From the NCBI GenBank assembly GCA_965223665.1, contig OZ245011.1, positions 2,912,001 to 2,976,000 on the forward strand: 64,000 bases of DNA, given 5' to 3'. The position numbers and the translations under genes are program-made. The notes beneath the pieces were generated by a model, which did no database searches, was not told the origin of the DNA, and worked only from the letters and a program-made list of their open reading frames with translations. This DNA comes from Nitrospinaceae bacterium (lineage in GTDB: Bacteria > Nitrospinota > Nitrospinia > Nitrospinales > Nitrospinaceae). Below are positions 49,901 through 58,186 of the stretch, piece after piece; the first letter of the stretch is position 1, and each line of letters begins with the position of its first letter.

Positions 49901-51304
49901 CTATTTAGTTTTAGAGCGCCACTCTTTTAAAGAACGCGTGATTTGAGCCAGGACTTGTTTTTTAGCCGTACCCCCATAGACGTTTTTTCTTTGAACAGAA
50001 TTTTCCAAGGAAATGTAATTAAAAATATCTTTATCAAACTTATTGGAAATGGTTTGTAGTTCTTTTAACGTCAAATCTTCTAATGTACGTTTTTGGTTAA
50101 TGCAATAAGCGACAGTTTTTCCCGTAATTTCGTGGGCGTTGCGAAAGGGAATATTTTTTAGAACCAAATAGTCTGCCAAATCCGTTGCCGTTAAAAACCC
50201 GCTATTAATTAAATCTGCTTTGGGAATTTTTTTGAATACTGCGGTACTTAACATTCCAGCGAACACTTCCAAAGATATTTTAACTGTATCGACCATATCG
50301 AATAAGGGTTCCTTGTCTTCCTGCAAATCTTTGTTGTAGGCCAGAGGTTGTCCTTTCATCAAGGTCAAAAGTCCCATTAAATGTCCATAGACACGACCGG
50401 TTTTACCTCGGATCAGTTCGGCGGCATCGGGATTTTTCTTTTGCGGCATAATACTGGAACCTGTTGTGAAAGCATCCGACAATTCTAGAAATGCGAACTC
50501 GCTGGTACACCACAGGACAATTTCCTCACAAAATCGGCTTAAATGCATCATAAGTAAGGAAGCGGCAGAACCAAACTCTACAATAAAATCCCGGTCACTG
50601 ACGGAATCCAAACTGTTGTGCGTCACTTTAGGGAATTTTAGCAATTTTGCGGTGTGCTTTCGGTCGATGGGGAAATTAGTTCCCGCTAAAGCCGCAGCTC
50701 CTAAAGGCAAAACATTGACCCGGTTCAAAACATCATTCAAGCGGTCACGATCACGCGCCAGCATTTCAACATAAGCCATTAAATGATGAGCCAGCAAGAT
50801 GGGCTGCGCCCGTTGTAAATGGGTATAACCGGGAATGATGTGATTGATATTTTTTTTCGCCAGTTGTATTAGTATGTTTGCCAACTCTTTGAGTAATTTT
50901 TGAATTTCTTTGATTTGATCTCGAAGGTACAACCGGATATCCAGTGCAACCTGGTCGTTACGACTTCTTCCGGTATGCAATTTACCGCCAACGGGTCCAA
51001 CTAATTGGATCAATCGGTTTTCGATATTCATATGAATATCTTCTAAATCTTCTCGAATTTGAAAACTTCCTTCTTCGAATTCTTTTAAGATTTTCTTTAA
51101 ACCTTGGGAAATCTTTTTTGCTTCCGCCGGTTTTATAATTTTACATTTTGCCAATGTTTGACAATGGGCCAGGCTCCCCTGAATATCATAGGCATACAAC
51201 CGACGATCAAAGAATATAGAAGCAGAAAACCGGATCATTAAATCATCAGTACTTTCCTGGAACCGACCGCTCCAGGGTTTTTTAGTTTTTGTTTTTTTTG
51301 CCAT
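49901..51304 (-). CDS. argH: Argininosuccinate lyase
   Basis: [36 protein letters not shown]. Confidence 0.97.
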
Positions 51305-51405: not shown

Positions 51406-52530
51406 TTAGGAGCTTTTCCGCCATTTGTCTTTAGGAACAATATTAACATGAACTTTTTCAGGAAGAACATGTGCTAAAAAATCAAGGTACCAGGCTTGAA
51501 TATTGGGGCAACCCGCACTGCCATTACGCCAATCAAAGTTTTTTTTCACAAATTCATTTGATTTGGAAACATTGACCCCATGGATTCCATAGCTTCCTCT
51601 TATAGGAGCCCCTAATTTTTTCAATCCTAACCACCAGTAACCTATTTCATGATCCGGATCGCCAAATGGGATGACACGTACTTTAACTCGACCCTCCACC
51701 CTTTCTTTTTTATACCAGGTAGGTTTATAAATTTTATTTTTTATTTCATATTCTCCAATAGGGGTTTCTTCCCCTTTGCGCCCAAATATAGTTTCAATTT
51801 CCATTAAATGTTCATTATTGTAGTAAATGTTAAGCATTCCCGTTTCCAGAATACCTACCAAATACCAAAGGTCGGGATTTTGGGAATACTCTCCAATTTT
51901 TCTTCCGTCGTAAATCAGCTGTATGGTAGATTCCGTATTATAATAACTGGTACGGGGGTCATTATAAATTTGTTTCACAATGTATTTTAAGTTTTTAGTT
52001 AATTCATTATTTTTTATAAGACGATCCACCATTTGCACTAATTCTTTATATTCCTTTTTCGTTTTCTTTAAACTTTTCTGAGTTTTTGCTAAGTGCTGTT
52101 GAATGGAATCGACTTTTTCCTGGGAAACCCAACCTAATTCCCTTAAACCCTCGTAATAAACCAGATCTATTTCAGTGCGCATTCCTTCCGTAATAAAAAA
52201 TTTGTAAGTAACAAAACCCCCAAAAATTAAAGTTCCGAGAACTAATGCAGAAGCCTTCAGGGTATTTTTCATTTTGTTAGAAATTTTATACCGGGCCACT
52301 TCAAGCTTTACTTTTTTTCCTTTTTCTTCCAGGGCCGAAAACTTGGCGTAACGAAATTTTTTGAAAAGTTTAGTTTCTAATCTGGAAAGAAAGGTATGGG
52401 ATTGTTCCAATTTGTTGATCACTGCATATAAATTCTCACGGGTTCGGCGGTCGTAACTTCCCTGAGGATCTTTGTTGGCAATTAGATTATATTCAGTGAC
52501 ACTGAGGACTTTAAGTTTTTTGGCATCCAT
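51406..52530 (-). CDS. Single-pass L,D-transpeptidase (YkuD) with novel N-terminal domain and coiled coil
   Basis: TPIGEY, KPTW, YGIHG...GSAGCP catalytic motif; TM at aa ~93-113; aa 1-64 shared with the upstream bactofilin. Confidence 0.85.
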   Translation of the reverse strand: MDAKKLKVLSVTEYNLIANKDPQGSYDRRTRENLYAVINKLEQSHTFLSRLETKLFKKFRYAKFSALEEKGKKVKLEVARYKISNKMKNTLKASALVLGTLIFGGFVTYKFFITEGMRTEIDLVYYEGLRELGWVSQEKVDSIQQHLAKTQKSLKKTKKEYKELVQMVDRLIKNNELTKNLKYIVKQIYNDPRTSYYNTESTIQLIYDGRKIGEYSQNPDLWYLVGILETGMLNIYYNNEHLMEIETIFGRKGEETPIGEYEIKNKIYKPTWYKKERVEGRVKVRVIPFGDPDHEIGYWWLGLKKLGAPIRGSYGIHGVNVSKSNEFVKKNFDWRNGSAGCPNIQAWYLDFLAHVLPEKVHVNIVPKDKWRKSS

Positions 52531-52708
52531 GTAAACTTACTAACACCTATTTTGCGTGGAGACCTTCGTTAAATAATTTAATGGGATAGCTTTTTTTAAA
52601 AAGACAAATCAACTTTAAAGAAATAAATTGAATTTATTTCTAAATTATTCCCTGAGAATAAGAGCTAAAATATTAGTGGAATATTTGTATAGTTTAGCGC
52701 AATTAAAT

Positions 52709-53272
52709 TTAGCCTACACTAAATAATTGGCTGACCAGGCTCTTCCTGGGTTTGGGAACTTCCGGGATAAATTTGGGACGAAATTTACATTGCCCCTGGA
52801 ACAAGGCTCCCGGTTCGATTTTTATGGAAGGGGCTTTTAAATCACCCATTAACATTCCCGTAGGATATACTTTTACTTTATGACTTGCCTCAACATCGCC
52901 AACAATTTTTCCTTTGCAATAAAGGGACTTTGCATAGACATTGCCTCTTAAATTTCCGGGTTCGGTCAAAATAAATATTCCATTTACGGTAATATCTCCT
53001 TCATGTCGACCTTCCAGGCAAACATTGCAATTGAATTTTAAGGATCCCTCGCTTTGATGCTCTATAGGCAGCAATAAACCAAAATCTGCATTTTGGAACT
53101 TTTTATAAAGGCGGTTTTCTTTCCAACAAGTACCTTTTTTATAAGTCTCTAATTTTCTGATAATTCTAAATAATTTTTCACGAACACTTCTTTCGAAAAA
53201 TCCTTGAGGATCTTTATCAATCAAAAATTCATATTCTGAATGGGTGAGAACATTTAATTTTATTTTTTTCAT
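52709..53272 (-). CDS. Bactofilin (DUF583) fused to novel N-terminal domain
   Basis: Beta-helix repeats GSLKF..EGDI..GNV.A..GKIVGDV..GDL.APSIKIEPGALFQGQC. Confidence 0.88.
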   Translation of the reverse strand: MKKIKLNVLTHSEYEFLIDKDPQGFFERSVREKLFRIIRKLETYKKGTCWKENRLYKKFQNADFGLLLPIEHQSEGSLKFNCNVCLEGRHEGDITVNGIFILTEPGNLRGNVYAKSLYCKGKIVGDVEASHKVKVYPTGMLMGDLKAPSIKIEPGALFQGQCKFRPKFIPEVPKPRKSLVSQLFSVG

Positions 53273-53280
53273 AGGGGCTC

Positions 53281-54597
53281 TCAGCTAAAGTTGGTGGCAA
53301 TTTGGGAAATTTTTCCCATTAGGGGAGGTTTTTTGGCTGCCGTCAAATATTCCATGATAGTTTTTTCACCACTTTCCAGCGTGGGGCAGGTCTTATAATC
53401 AGATAGGATGGCCCGAGCCACCATATCCATACAACCACTTAAACCGGGATCCATTTTGTAAAATAGAGTCCCATGGTTGTTGGTTATATTAATGACTTTA
53501 TGGTTAGGTAAAGAGCTTAAAATATGAATACGTTTTTTTAACTGCTGATACTTATCTAAAGTTTCTAAATAATCCTTCAACATGTTTAAGGCATTGGGAA
53601 TTTCTGATGGATTTTGTCCTCGGTTAAAAATTATTCCCAGTTTTTTATTCTTTAAGGATTGAACAATAGCATTATGACCCTTTTGGGCTGTCAATTGGGT
53701 GACATAATTTTTGTCCAACCCGGTTAGCTTCCCTGTCTGAAAGTCGGCCAAAAACTCTTCATAATAATCAATGAAAGAATGTAGTGCATCAATACTTCCA
53801 TTAATGGCAATATTGTTACTCAAATCAAAAACAAATATTACCTGATCGATTACATTCATTAATGAAGATAAATGGTTGATGCCTCCCGCAGGAGTGTCTA
53901 AAACCACATATCGGAATCTATCAAATACAGAATTCAAAAATTCTAGAAACAGTAGTAAATACTCCGGTTCATTGATCCGTTTGCGATGTCCTCGTTTTCC
54001 TAAAACAGGAACTTCCCCGCCAATGATAGAGAAATCGTATTCTTCAATAAAATTAATATATTCTTGAACCATAGGGCGGGAATTGTGTTCTGCCTGTTTA
54101 AGGATTTTTCGTAAAGCCGGCAGGTCAATATTTTTCAGAAGGGGTTTCAGTTTTTTGATTTCCGGAATACTGTGTATGTTTCCTCGACTCAGAAACAATT
54201 CATAAGCGGCTAAACCTTCCTTATATTCCATATGTTGGAACAATTCAGTTTTTAATGTTTTGAATAAAACAAAAGCCTTCTGTAATTTTTTATTGCGACC
54301 TTGAATTTCTCCCTCTAAATAGGCATTGAACCAGGTAACGATTTGATAAAGATTCCGCAAAAAATCGATTTGATAGGTTTTGTTTGCCAGAGTCTCAAAT
54401 AAATTATAAAAAGTTTTTCGTGGATGGCAGTCCAATAAACTTGTAATGGTGGGCAATCGCAAATCTAAATCCACTAAACAAATTTGTTTTTTAGGTGTTT
54501 TTTTTCCTAATAGTTGAGTGAGTGCGGCGGTGGTATTGATGGAAAGAGTGGTTTTTCCAATTCCTCCCTTGGGACCTACAATAGAAATAATTGGCAT
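53281..54597 (-). CDS. Enlarged MinD/ParA-family ATPase
   Basis: Deviant Walker A GPKGGIGKTT, LVDLD, VLDTPAG, IFNR; 438 aa with large insertions. Confidence 0.85.
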   Translation of the reverse strand: MPIISIVGPKGGIGKTTLSINTTAALTQLLGKKTPKKQICLVDLDLRLPTITSLLDCHPRKTFYNLFETLANKTYQIDFLRNLYQIVTWFNAYLEGEIQGRNKKLQKAFVLFKTLKTELFQHMEYKEGLAAYELFLSRGNIHSIPEIKKLKPLLKNIDLPALRKILKQAEHNSRPMVQEYINFIEEYDFSIIGGEVPVLGKRGHRKRINEPEYLLLFLEFLNSVFDRFRYVVLDTPAGGINHLSSLMNVIDQVIFVFDLSNNIAINGSIDALHSFIDYYEEFLADFQTGKLTGLDKNYVTQLTAQKGHNAIVQSLKNKKLGIIFNRGQNPSEIPNALNMLKDYLETLDKYQQLKKRIHILSSLPNHKVINITNNHGTLFYKMDPGLSGCMDMVARAILSDYKTCPTLESGEKTIMEYLTAAKKPPLMGKISQIATNFS

Positions 54598-55305
54598 TTA
54601 ATTTGACCCCTCTGACTTGATTTTTGTAGCCCCTGCAATGACCAAAGTAATTTCCCCTTTCCATTTTTTAGATTTAGTTTGTTGAATGACTTCTTGCACC
54701 GATCCTCGAATCACTTCTTCATGCATTTTGGTTAATTCACGGGTAACGGCAATTTGTCGTTCTCCAAAAACTTCTGCAATTTCTTCTAGAGTTTTTTGAA
54801 TCCGTTGAGGGGATTCAAAAAGCACGACCGAAGCGGAATGTTGAGCTAAGGTTTCCATTGTTTTTCTTCGTCGTTTTTTTCTCGGCAGAAAACCGGCAAA
54901 AACAAATCGGTCAACCGGAAGACCTGAAACAATCAATGATGCCAAAACCGCTGATGGTCCTGGCAACGGGTAAACCGGAATCCCGTTATTAATTGCTAAT
55001 TGAACTAATTGATATAGTGGATCTGATACCCCGGGTGTACCTGCGTCTGAAACTAAGGCAACATTTTGCCCCTCTAGCAAATTGCGAATTATTACAGGTC
55101 CTTTTTTTATTTGGTTATAACTATTATAACTGGAAAGGGGCGTGGAAATATCATAATGGTTTAATAGAATTCGAGTGCGCCTCGTATCTTCCGCTGCAAT
55201 TAGTTGCACTTCCCTTAAAGTTTCCACGGCGCGATAAGTGATGTCTCCCAGGTTGCCAATGGGAGTACTCACAATAAAAAGCGAGCCCTTTTCATTTTTT
55301 AGCAT
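54598..55305 (-). CDS. rsmI: 16S rRNA C1402 2'-O-methyltransferase
   Basis: TPIGNLGDIT, AEDTR, SDAGTPGVSDP, FESP, RELTKMHEE. Confidence 0.96.
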   Translation of the reverse strand: MLKNEKGSLFIVSTPIGNLGDITYRAVETLREVQLIAAEDTRRTRILLNHYDISTPLSSYNSYNQIKKGPVIIRNLLEGQNVALVSDAGTPGVSDPLYQLVQLAINNGIPVYPLPGPSAVLASLIVSGLPVDRFVFAGFLPRKKRRRKTMETLAQHSASVVLFESPQRIQKTLEEIAEVFGERQIAVTRELTKMHEEVIRGSVQEVIQQTKSKKWKGEITLVIAGATKIKSEGSN

Positions 55306-55444: not shown

Positions 55445-55858
55445 TTAGCCTAATGCTTCTTTTTCCGAGTCTCCCGATTCATCTTTCATCAAATTAATGA
55501 TCTTTTTTTCTTTTGGAACCATGTTACATTGGCCATCCAAAACGGCTCCCACCTCAACGAATAAAGAAGGGGTATTAACGTCACCAATGACTTCGCTATT
55601 AGAATAAATTTCAACACGTGTTGCGGCATTGATAGAACCTTTAATTTTTCCTTTACAAATTACAGTTCCCGCTGTGATATTGGCTTCTAGAACTCCCTTT
55701 TCTCCAACAATTAATGTGTCCTCCGTTTTAACTTCTCCCTCTAAGGTTCCGTCAACTCGAACTGCACCCGCAAAAGTGAGCGATCCTTTAAAAACCGCAT
55801 CTTCACCCATATAGGCTTTTATATCTTTAATATTTTCGTAATCTTTTTTGCTTCCCAT
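55445..55858 (-). CDS. Bactofilin (polymer-forming cytoskeletal protein)
   Basis: FKGSLTF.GAVRVDG..EGEV....IVGEKG..GDV.TPSL.VEVGAVLDGQC; start at MGSKK after a G-rich RBS. Confidence 0.93.
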   Translation of the reverse strand: MGSKKDYENIKDIKAYMGEDAVFKGSLTFAGAVRVDGTLEGEVKTEDTLIVGEKGVLEANITAGTVICKGKIKGSINAATRVEIYSNSEVIGDVNTPSLFVEVGAVLDGQCNMVPKEKKIINLMKDESGDSEKEALG

Positions 55859-55920
55859 AATAAAATTCCCCCCCGCCGACACATTCGGTAGAAAATTTGT
55901 TTCAAATTGTTTTTGGTTAT

Positions 55921-56784
55921 TTATTTACCCATTATAATATCACGAATTCTCGTTAAGTCATCATTAGAATAGTAAGAAATCAATAACTTACCTCCTTTTT
56001 TTGCTGGATGGATGGTTACTTTGGTTCCTACCTTCCTTTCCAATTCGGTTTCTAAAGATTTGATAAAAGCGTCTTTATGGGCAATTGGTGTGGCGGGTTT
56101 TTCCTTTTCGGGTCTCTTTAAGTTTTTTACTAAATTTTCTACCTGTCGCACGTTTAGTGACTGTTTAATTACAGCTAAACGGGCCTCTTCCATTTCTTTT
56201 TCTGTTTCTAAAGCCAAAATTGCCCTTGCATGTCCCATTGTTAATCGGCCGGAAACTAAATCTTCTTTAAAAGAATGAGAAAGTTTTAGTAACCGTAAAT
56301 AATTGGCGATGGTTGCTCGATTTTTTCCTACTTTTTTGGAAATGGCTTCCTGGGTGAGTCCAAATTCATGTGCCAGTTGATGATAGGCTTCTGCTTCTTC
56401 TATCGGATTTAAGTCTGCACGATGAATATTTTCTATAAGGGCTAATTGTAAAGACTCTGTGCTGCTGACTTCCCGAATCACAGCGGGTATTTTTTTTAAT
56501 CCCAGTTTTTTACAAGCACGCCATCGCCTTTCTCCACAAATCAACTCAAATTGGTTTTCTGCTTTTTGAACCACCACGGGTTGGATAATTCCATTTTCTT
56601 TAATGGAATCCACCAATTCCTGAAAAGGCTCATCTTCAAATTGTTTTCTGGGTTGATTGGGGTTGGGTGATATTTCATCGACCAATAATTCAGTAAGTCC
56701 CTCCTTGGCTTCGGTTTCTGTGATTCCCATTTCAAAATCAGGAATCAGGGCGTTGATCCCTTTTCCAAGTGCTTTTCGATTCAC
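55921..56784 (-). CDS. parB: Chromosome partition protein ParB
   Basis: RKALGKG, NPNQPRK, GERRWRA, ENIHRADLNPIEEA, HTH, GHARA. Confidence 0.96.
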   Translation of the reverse strand: MNRKALGKGINALIPDFEMGITETEAKEGLTELLVDEISPNPNQPRKQFEDEPFQELVDSIKENGIIQPVVVQKAENQFELICGERRWRACKKLGLKKIPAVIREVSSTESLQLALIENIHRADLNPIEEAEAYHQLAHEFGLTQEAISKKVGKNRATIANYLRLLKLSHSFKEDLVSGRLTMGHARAILALETEKEMEEARLAVIKQSLNVRQVENLVKNLKRPEKEKPATPIAHKDAFIKSLETELERKVGTKVTIHPAKKGGKLLISYYSNDDLTRIRDIIMGK

Positions 56785-57584
56785 GATGATTGATCCATTA
56801 TGGTTAAAGGTTTATTGAAGGGTTTGGAGCGGGCAATAATTTCTTTGGCTAATTCCACATAAGAGTCTGCTCCACTGGAACGATTGTCGTAAAGAATAAC
56901 CGGCTTTCCATGACTGGGTGCCTCGCTCAAACGAACGTTTCGAGGAATAACTGTTTCAAGAAGATTTTCTTTGAAATATTTTTTAACCTGTTCATGAACT
57001 TGAGCTGCCAAACTGGTACGCTTGTCATACATGGTTAATAGAATGCCTTCTATTTTTAAATCAGGATTGAAGGAATGTTTGACCAACTTGAGAGTTTTCA
57101 TCAAATGGCTCAACCCCTGAAGCGAGTAATATTCGCATTGCATAGGGATTAGTACCGAACGCGACACGTTTAAAGCATTTAAAGTTAGCAATCCTAAAGA
57201 GGGTGGGCAATCTATCATGACAAAGTCATAATAATTTTCTATGCCATTTAGGGCTAATTTTAATTGAGACTCCCGATTCTCCTGACTCACCAATTCAATT
57301 TCGGCTCCGGCCAAATCGACAGTTGCAGGAACCAGCTTCAGAGTTTCGACTTCCGTTTCATGGGTGACTTGATCCAAACTTGTTCTTCCCAAGAGCAAAT
57401 CATAGGTTCCCTTTCCTCCTTCTGGCAAACTCACTCCTAAACCACTGGTTGCGTTGCTTTGAGGGTCCATATCGATTAGAAGAACATTTTTTCCTGTTGT
57501 AGCTAGGCAAGCAGCAAGATTTATGGACGTAGTGGTCTTTCCGACGCCACCTTTTTGATTAGCCACACTAATGATTTTCGCCAT
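56781..57584 (-). CDS. parA: Chromosome partition ATPase ParA (Soj)
   Basis: NQKGGVGKTT, DMDPQSN, DCPPSLG, IPRNVRLSEAPS; start at MAKIIS. Confidence 0.96.
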   Translation of the reverse strand: MAKIISVANQKGGVGKTTTSINLAACLATTGKNVLLIDMDPQSNATSGLGVSLPEGGKGTYDLLLGRTSLDQVTHETEVETLKLVPATVDLAGAEIELVSQENRESQLKLALNGIENYYDFVMIDCPPSLGLLTLNALNVSRSVLIPMQCEYYSLQGLSHLMKTLKLVKHSFNPDLKIEGILLTMYDKRTSLAAQVHEQVKKYFKENLLETVIPRNVRLSEAPSHGKPVILYDNRSSGADSYVELAKEIIARSKPFNKPLTIMDQSS

Positions 57585-57836
57585 AGAATTAATTGGAAGG
57601 GTAAAATAAAAATAAATTATCACAAAAAATGGAACTTTCCAATTCAATTCCCACGGCCCGCGGCCGGTGGGAACTTTTTAGTACCGATGATCGGCAATAA
57701 ACGCCGAACCCTCAGAAACTTTTCCTGAGTTGAACTTGTCTCTAGAGGAAAAGTAAATAATAAGAGGCGATATGTCCCTCCTTATAGAAATTATGGAGCA
57801 AAAATCAATAGATACAAGAGGGAAAGCCGATGTTCG

Positions 57837-58170: not shown

Positions 58171-58186
58171 TGTTTCACGTGGAACA
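58171..58186. promoter_or_regulatory. parS: parS site
   Basis: TGTTTCACGTGGAACA matches the parS consensus, upstream of parAB. Confidence 0.93.

Follow-up and report, generated by a model that had tools for sequence, protein, structure and literature searches.

A duplicated N-terminal domain on a YkuD-family enzyme and a bactofilin: a candidate docking module for a MinD-like ATPase in Nitrospinota

Introduction

What does a small domain do when it stands at the N-terminus of two otherwise unrelated proteins that are encoded side by side? This question is raised by a locus in a 64,000-nucleotide stretch of the genome of a Nitrospinaceae bacterium, a marine nitrite oxidiser (GenBank assembly GCA_965223665.1, contig OZ245011.1, positions 2,912,001 to 2,976,000; hereafter the window, in whose numbering all positions are given unless another sequence is named). 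One carrier is a putative YkuD-family cell-wall enzyme and the other a bactofilin, here called BAC2, and both genes lie on the minus strand behind that of a MinD-like ATPase, in the order rsmI, ATPase, BAC2, enzyme, argH. How bacteria place wall-remodelling enzymes to produce non-rod shapes is an open question, and the known routes use bactofilins or other scaffolds directly. For the present locus, we propose, with a probability of roughly 0.6, that the shared domain is a docking module for the upstream ATPase, which would allow the ATPase to position the membrane-anchored enzyme.

An old duplication of an undescribed domain

Translation that begins at the ATG codons of positions 52530 and 53272 confirmed the two copies on the minus strand, which agree at 27 of 64 ungapped positions, as a preliminary description of this DNA had reported, and at 28 of 67. 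No further identities are gained as far as residue 80; the similarity stops after residue 67, giving a domain of about 65 residues. Shuffled sequences reached a mean of 4.7 identities and a maximum of 16 in 100,000 trials, and BLASTP between the copies gives an E-value of 4e-13. At the DNA level, identity at codon positions 1, 2 and 3 is 39, 42 and 25 of 64, and the low value at third positions argues that the copies are old and have been selected at the protein level. In a tree of 68 copies, built on 64 columns and with its bootstrap incompletely settled, a single branch (support 99/97) splits 37 enzyme copies from 31 bactofilin copies. The codon-position pattern and the tree together support the old duplication under protein-level selection that had been suggested and rule out a recent duplication or gene conversion. 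The tree fits a single duplication that predates the diversification of the order. The 4.35-megabase genome holds no third copy.

Both copies are basic (isoelectric points of 9.9 and 9.8) with a predicted helical fold, as anticipated in the preliminary description; across relatives, the net charge averages about +3 and ranges from -1 to +8. The KDPQG string first put forward as the consensus did not survive, since Q23 varies freely; what the family conserves is the motif K-[DN]-P-x-G-x-Y-D-x-x-T-R-E-x-L, and of all columns in the alignment of 68 rows E52 alone is invariant. AlphaFold2 predicts three helices (residues 11-18, 28-43 and 50-58/60) and a short extended loop at 25-26, with a predicted local distance difference test (pLDDT) score of 92-95 inside the bactofilin model and 77.7 when the domain is modelled alone.

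None of the libraries and papers searched describes the domain, and no confident match to a characterised domain appeared, in keeping with the earlier failure to recognise a named one. It stays below the Pfam cut-off (best 17 bits versus 27, to Vta1), has zero NCBIfam matches above cut-off and no significant match among PDB sequences (best E 0.06), while PHROGs gave no match for this genome's copy and one weak family for 2 of the 68 rows. Small helical bundles are hard to place by fold; a first fold search gave no clear match (best Z 4.9, root-mean-square deviation (rmsd) 4.3, 64 aligned), and Foldseek found a clear match neither in the PDB (best E 6.3) nor among viral structures (best E 1.5). 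The ESM Atlas gave no usable match, a result that says nothing for novelty or absence. Among the papers listed by our literature search, whose coverage of subscription papers is slight, none describes the domain or the gene trio.

Further fusion partners were also sought, as the preliminary description had proposed, and only enzyme and bactofilin carriers were recognised. A library of 1.84 billion representatives yielded 38 matches, and for each of the 37 non-self ones the best alignment is with the enzyme or BAC2: one has a YkuD domain, 15 a bactofilin domain, and 21 (63-216 residues) no family. As these last are mostly truncated-looking, there may yet be a rare third partner. A second search returned 42 proteins (25 YkuD, 13 bactofilin and 4 short ones without a family).

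Joint retention of the ATPase and the enzyme

Within 120 genomes of the phylum, the domain is present in 74, every one of them in the order of the source genome, while none of the 18 genomes outside that order gave a match. A deeper profile added one match there (G005, E 0.0096), which lies within an unrelated 691-residue P-loop open reading frame and was rejected as chance. A GTDB-wide scan for the enzyme found 62 loci, 59 under Nitrospin- taxon names and one under Nitrospirae; 44 have the ATPase-bactofilin-enzyme arrangement, 10 have ATPase-enzyme and 6 are cut off upstream, while the remaining two (L141 and L142) show no ATPase beside a partial enzyme, that of L142 being a deletion remnant. 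These searches found the domain on two protein types and, with next to no exception, in a single order of Nitrospinota, the phylum to which the source names of the family also point.

The ATPase and the enzyme are retained or lost jointly, and the bactofilin independently. Completeness reaches 90% or more in 57 genomes; the ATPase is present in 40 of them, these 40 also carry the enzyme, and none has one of the two intact alone. The 41st enzyme match (G080) is a deletion remnant in which an N-terminal piece of the ATPase and a C-terminal piece of the enzyme lie side by side. BAC2 is missing from 7 of the 40 genomes, one of which has a weak remnant, and the enzyme copy of the domain is fully conserved there. 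Four genomes (G075, G076, G089 and G090, two of them less than 90% complete) keep the bactofilin alone between rsmI and argH. Separate deletions are needed to remove the flanking ATPase and enzyme and spare the gene in the middle, and because kin are not independent, the pattern amounts to about two bactofilin-only events and several bactofilin losses. In six domain-less genomes (G039, G052, G053, G071, G073 and G074), rsmI is followed by argH with no intact module between them, an enzyme stub alone remaining in G074; in two more, the read ended before argH (G072) or rsmI gave no match (G047).

The orphaned domain of G075 and G076 has lost Y26 and R31 and has diverged more quickly than the beta-helix behind it (dN 0.32 versus 0.13, dS about 1.5), a relaxation that counts in favour of docking. 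In G090, a possible remnant of the enzyme's catalytic motif (L065:5946-5987, E 0.13) lies between BAC2 and argH in the right place and on the right strand, hinting at a fairly recent loss of the enzyme. Extra DNA or an extra gene is found between module genes in L032, L033, L043, L044 and L068; a 361-residue open reading frame between BAC2 and the enzyme in G021 is an example of such an insertion.

A predicted complex of the enzyme's domain with the ATPase dimer

The ATPase was picked as a partner from the loss pattern, ahead of any model. When two copies of ATPase residues 1-424 with ATP and Mg were modelled together with residues 1-70 of the enzyme, the interface score ipSAE was 0.71 (0.71, 0.69 and 0.74 in the runs), as against 0.00 for the best of three controls. 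The mark for this score is met by 116/157 solved and 2/215 mismatched pairs, a calibration that is rough here, where own alignments and ligands were used. Contacts agreed by at least 90%, and the pLDDT of the partner was 85. On the side of the domain, the contact comprises residues 11-20, 24-30 and 33-34, corresponding to helix 1 and the G-x-Y-D-R-x-T segment, in which G24, Y26, D27 and T30 are invariant among enzyme copies. On the side of the ATPase, one copy contributes residues 55-61, 64-65, 182-186, 195-200 and 375-377, and the other 266, 270 and 342-348. From this model, we consider it quite likely that the enzyme's domain binds the ATPase dimer.

The predicted site adjoins the switch region of the ATPase, where MinE binds MinD. 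H58 of the ATPase aligns with E53 of Escherichia coli MinD, in an alignment that is reliable for residues 1-66 only. With low confidence, ATPase residues 266/270, 342-347 and 375-377 map to MinD 144/148, 198-203 and 223-225, which we take to be MinE/MinC contacts, although a literature search gave no confirmation. [quoted passage not shown] Similarity of the domain itself to MinE was rejected, with a probability of 0.3%. The predicted interface is conserved on both sides: in the ATPase, 19 of 29 interface positions are conserved at 90% or more versus 124 of 395 elsewhere, and in the enzyme copies conservation is 0.83 versus 0.60. As the model saw the alignments, this conservation is not independent evidence.

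The three proteins of the module

The ATPase has a K-G-G-x-G-K-T motif with the signature Lys10, followed by D-x-D and D-T-P-A-G-G, a large conserved insertion that has no counterpart in E. coli MinD, and a basic, putatively amphipathic C-terminal helix. Over 37 rows, K10, G11, G12, G14, K15, T16, D43 and D234 are invariant and D45 nearly so, and the motif residues align to MinD K11, K16, D38, D40 and D120. By sequence, it is a protein with the deviant Walker A, D-x-D and Walker B motifs of the ParA/MinD family. The MinD equivalog model gives 33 bits versus a cut-off of 212.9, and MinE and MinC_C were undetected in the source genome, which is 98.6% complete. The best Atlas cluster of the ATPase is commonest in Nitrospinota. 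Its C-terminal tail is basic, with a mean best-window hydrophobic moment of 0.60 (37 rows, given without a control value), and is shortened in 4 rows. The helix is short in four genus-g3 genomes without BAC2 (L035-L038), and the other BAC2-less genomes keep it in full.

In the enzyme, the shared domain is followed by a basic linker, a transmembrane helix, a coiled-coil-like stalk and the catalytic domain. The hydrophobic helix reaches a Kyte-Doolittle (KD) value of 1.5 in 44 of 47 relatives, and the shared domain is predicted to be cytoplasmic because lysine and arginine are richer before the helix than after it (means of 6.4 versus 2.2). PF03734 matches at 46.9 bits (cut-off 23.4), and the HG...SxGC catalytic motif is present in 47/47 rows, with an invariant Asn at Cys+2. 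Every L,D-transpeptidase model of NCBIfam stays under its cut-off. YkuD shape proteins such as Bd1075, Csd6 and Pgp2 can be LD-carboxypeptidases, and Cys+2 is reported as Arg in most LD-transpeptidases, Ala in Csd6 and Pgp2, and Val in Bd1075 (PMC8938487). The chemistry of the protein may therefore be that of a transpeptidase or that of a carboxypeptidase. No relative of it was found in viral contigs.

BAC2 matches PF04519 at 76 bits (cut-off 27.9), and its model superposes on 6RIB with an rmsd of 1.0 over 100 columns (target TM-score 0.93). The shared domain abuts the first strand of the beta-helix, at the filament-forming end, and in this modelled position it might block head-to-head assembly. 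The basic C-terminal tail (52709-52780) ends in Gly in 27 of 41 rows and is possibly a membrane anchor or binding motif. In L043 (6353-7126) and L044 (3360-4133), the bactofilin open frame has about 75 extra residues before the shared domain, from a putative start site.

Proposed positioning of the enzyme and the alternatives

The preliminary description named neither the carriers nor a partner and suggested DNA, lipid or the domain itself as ligands; the evidence points instead to the upstream ATPase. Known ATPases of the ParA/MinD family bind a region at the N-terminus of a partner and attach to the membrane through an amphipathic helix at their own C-terminus (PMC11407121), and it is by analogy with them that positioning, ATPase stimulation and membrane binding are proposed here for the proteins of the module. 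The ATP-bound dimer would sit on the membrane through its C-terminal helix and capture the cytoplasmic tail of the enzyme through the shared domain; triggered hydrolysis would then release the enzyme, so that peptidoglycan editing would be confined to zones. The least certain part is the duplicated copy on the bactofilin, which might, speculatively, serve as a weaker anchor that is optional, either a fixed landmark or a competitor, biasing the places at which ATPase and enzyme gather and so tuning cell shape.

Several observations weigh against docking as we propose it. In the bactofilin copies, the predicted interface shows no excess of conservation over the other positions (0.53 versus 0.57), and Y26, D27 and T30 are substituted in the source genome (Y26F, D27E and T30V relative to the enzyme copy); as a group, these copies retain G24 and Y26 (96%) and, for the most part, D27 and T30, whereas N15, S25 and N33 are not kept. 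The complex model covers the enzyme copy alone, and since MinD-MinE complexes have been solved, it could partly recall their site. In G089 and G090, where no ATPase or enzyme was found, the domain is under purifying selection (dN/dS about 0.11), which points either to a further function in these genomes or to a recent loss. Finally, the module is missing from several near-complete genomes of the order and is therefore non-essential.

The same complex model and co-occurrence would also serve if the domain bound the ATPase in order to switch the enzyme on or off instead of moving it: the ATP-bound dimer would clamp the cytoplasmic tails or make them dimerise, the signal would pass through the transmembrane helix and the coiled-coil stalk, and the bactofilin copy would titrate the ATPase. 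The coiled-coil-like stalk suits signalling by a dimer, and the large conserved insertion missing from E. coli MinD could be taken the same way. We regard a switch as unlikely, in that most of the ParA/MinD members covered by a review act as positioners (PMC11407121) and the linked cytoskeletal gene fits a spatial role. Less likely again is that the domain is a like-binds-like tag tying the enzyme to bactofilin filaments, as the LmdC tail is tied to BacA, with the ATPase a bystander or bound elsewhere. The presence of the same domain on both proteins and at the filament-forming end of the beta-helix, the LmdC-like layout of the enzyme (PMC10945521) and the conservation of the domain in the bactofilin-only G089 and G090 all speak for such a tag; yet the enzyme tracks the ATPase rather than the bactofilin, its copy is highly conserved in the near-complete genomes without BAC2, and the complex model puts the invariant surface of the domain on the ATPase.

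It is also conceivable, but very improbable in our judgement, that the domain, being basic, binds membranes or DNA and replaces the short N-terminal membrane-targeting peptide of bactofilins, which usually bind membranes through their N-terminus (PMC12448750). Its high isoelectric points and positive mean charge agree with this role, but the net charge falls as low as -1 among relatives, the invariant residues are N, G, Y, D, T and E with no basic face, the enzyme is already membrane-anchored, and BAC2 has a separate basic tail of its own.

Returning to docking and positioning, a role in cell shape finds some echo in the source organisms. Domain-bearing bactofilins come from, among others, Ca. 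Nitrohelix vancouverensis and Ca. Nitronauta litoralis, for which helical and slightly curved cells have been described; N. gracilis is described as a long slender rod, and shape is said to vary with growth (PMC8026999). The bactofilin is missing from a Nitrospina sp. locus (L123). This anecdote fits a shape role and proves little. Our wider picture is tentative: a self-contained three-gene device, of a class new among ParA/MinD positioning systems, in which the same domain would plug enzyme and bactofilin into one site on the ATPase dimer, patterning wall chemistry and setting the curved or helical shape of the main marine nitrite oxidisers. An ATPase of the MinD type that holds a wall enzyme by its cytoplasmic tail would widen the cargo of ParA/MinD systems by a new class and bring a new kind of partner fold to the site of MinE. 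We know of no genetics in Nitrospinota; with three small genes and an interface predicted to residue level, the proposal is testable in vitro and in E. coli.

Locus and neighbouring genes

The features of the locus are collected in Table 1. The flanking genes are presumed to be rsmI, which has a Pfam match, and argH, named after its sequence. A promoter and terminator scan gave results at chance level.

Table 1. Positions in the window of the module, its predicted contact sites and neighbouring genes
Feature	Position	Strand	Basis or remark
YkuD/L,D-transpeptidase-family enzyme, 374 residues, single-pass	51406..52530	-	Pfam, topology
Shared domain copy 1 (enzyme residues 1-67)	52330..52530	-	predicted cytoplasmic; BLASTP, identity, topology
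Core of predicted ATPase contact, enzyme residues 24-30 (G-S-Y-D-R-R-T)	52441..52461	-	complex model
Predicted transmembrane helix, residues 95-113	52192..52248	-	hydrophobicity, lysine/arginine bias
YkuD domain, residues 232-361; H317, G318, C341 invariant	51448..51837	-	Pfam, alignment
BAC2, bactofilin with shared domain, 187 residues; beta-helix about residues 65-164	52709..53272	-	Pfam, model
Shared domain copy 2 (bactofilin residues 1-67)	53072..53272	-	runs straight into first beta-helix strand
MinD/FlhG-like ATPase, 438 residues	53281..54597	-	starts right after rsmI stop, ends 8 base pairs before BAC2
Main predicted docking patch, ATPase residues 55-61	54415..54435	-	complex model
rsmI-like methyltransferase gene, upstream flank	54598..55305	-	Pfam TP_methylase
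argH-like gene, downstream flank	49901..51304	-	sequence
BAC1, ordinary bactofilin without the domain	55445..55882	-	directly after parA-parB

Further upstream (55445-57647), parA-parB is directly followed by the ordinary bactofilin in most loci that reach there, module-less genomes included, an order that recalls the Myxococcus bactofilin-ParAB link. Between an rsmG-like gene and parA lies a near-perfect parS-type palindrome (58171-58186), one mismatch from the parS consensus, where 0.01 would be expected by chance. A third bactofilin of the source genome is encoded outside the window by a 758-residue open frame (G000:C1:414094-416367); the bactofilin domain stands at its N-terminus, and the frame also has a hydrophobic helix and what, judged by eye, resemble many TPR repeats.

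Comparison with known systems

With MinD-MinE, the module shares an ATPase that has the deviant Walker A motif and ends in a putative amphipathic helix, as in ParA/MinD proteins at large (PMC12462528, PMC11407121), and a partner whose N-terminal region is predicted at the dimer edge beside the E53-equivalent residue. It differs in that this partner is a folded three-helix domain unlike MinE, carried by both a single-pass peptidoglycan enzyme and a bactofilin. It departs from MinCDE in that neither MinC nor MinE was found in the source genome, and in the length of the ATPase, which with its large insertion scores under the MinD cut-off. In a 2024 review of ParA/MinD systems, cell-wall enzymes are missing from the cargo columns of the table (PMC11407121).

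The gene layout is closest to BacA-LmdC of Hyphomonas neptunium and Rhodospirillum rubrum, in which a bactofilin gene likewise adjoins that of a single-pass peptidoglycan enzyme with a cytoplasmic N-terminus, transmembrane helix, coiled coil and C-terminal catalytic domain (PMC10945521). Here, however, the catalytic domain is YkuD rather than M23, the tail is helical rather than a beta-hairpin and is duplicated on the bactofilin, and the enzyme co-occurs strictly with the ATPase and not with the bactofilin. A further echo is BacNOP-PadC-ParA of Myxococcus xanthus, where a bactofilin scaffold recruits a ParA/MinD-family ATPase, but through a separate ParB-like adaptor and with the chromosome origin as cargo (PMC5703909). 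In the present module, the putative adaptor is part of the bactofilin itself and common to the wall enzyme, and no ParB-like match was obtained for the domain or its carriers. As for the enzyme, Bd1075, Csd6 and Pgp2 likewise have a YkuD domain with His-Gly-Cys, and their localised peptidoglycan editing gives curvature; these are LD-carboxypeptidases, and Bd1075 is targeted by an NTF2 domain (PMC8938487), whereas the present enzyme has Asn at Cys+2 and its putative targeting element is predicted to lie in the cytoplasm. The module is real, lineage-specific and undescribed: it belongs to none of MinCDE, BacA-LmdC and PadC, and is like a ParA/MinD-partner system in its proposed working and like BacA-LmdC in its layout.
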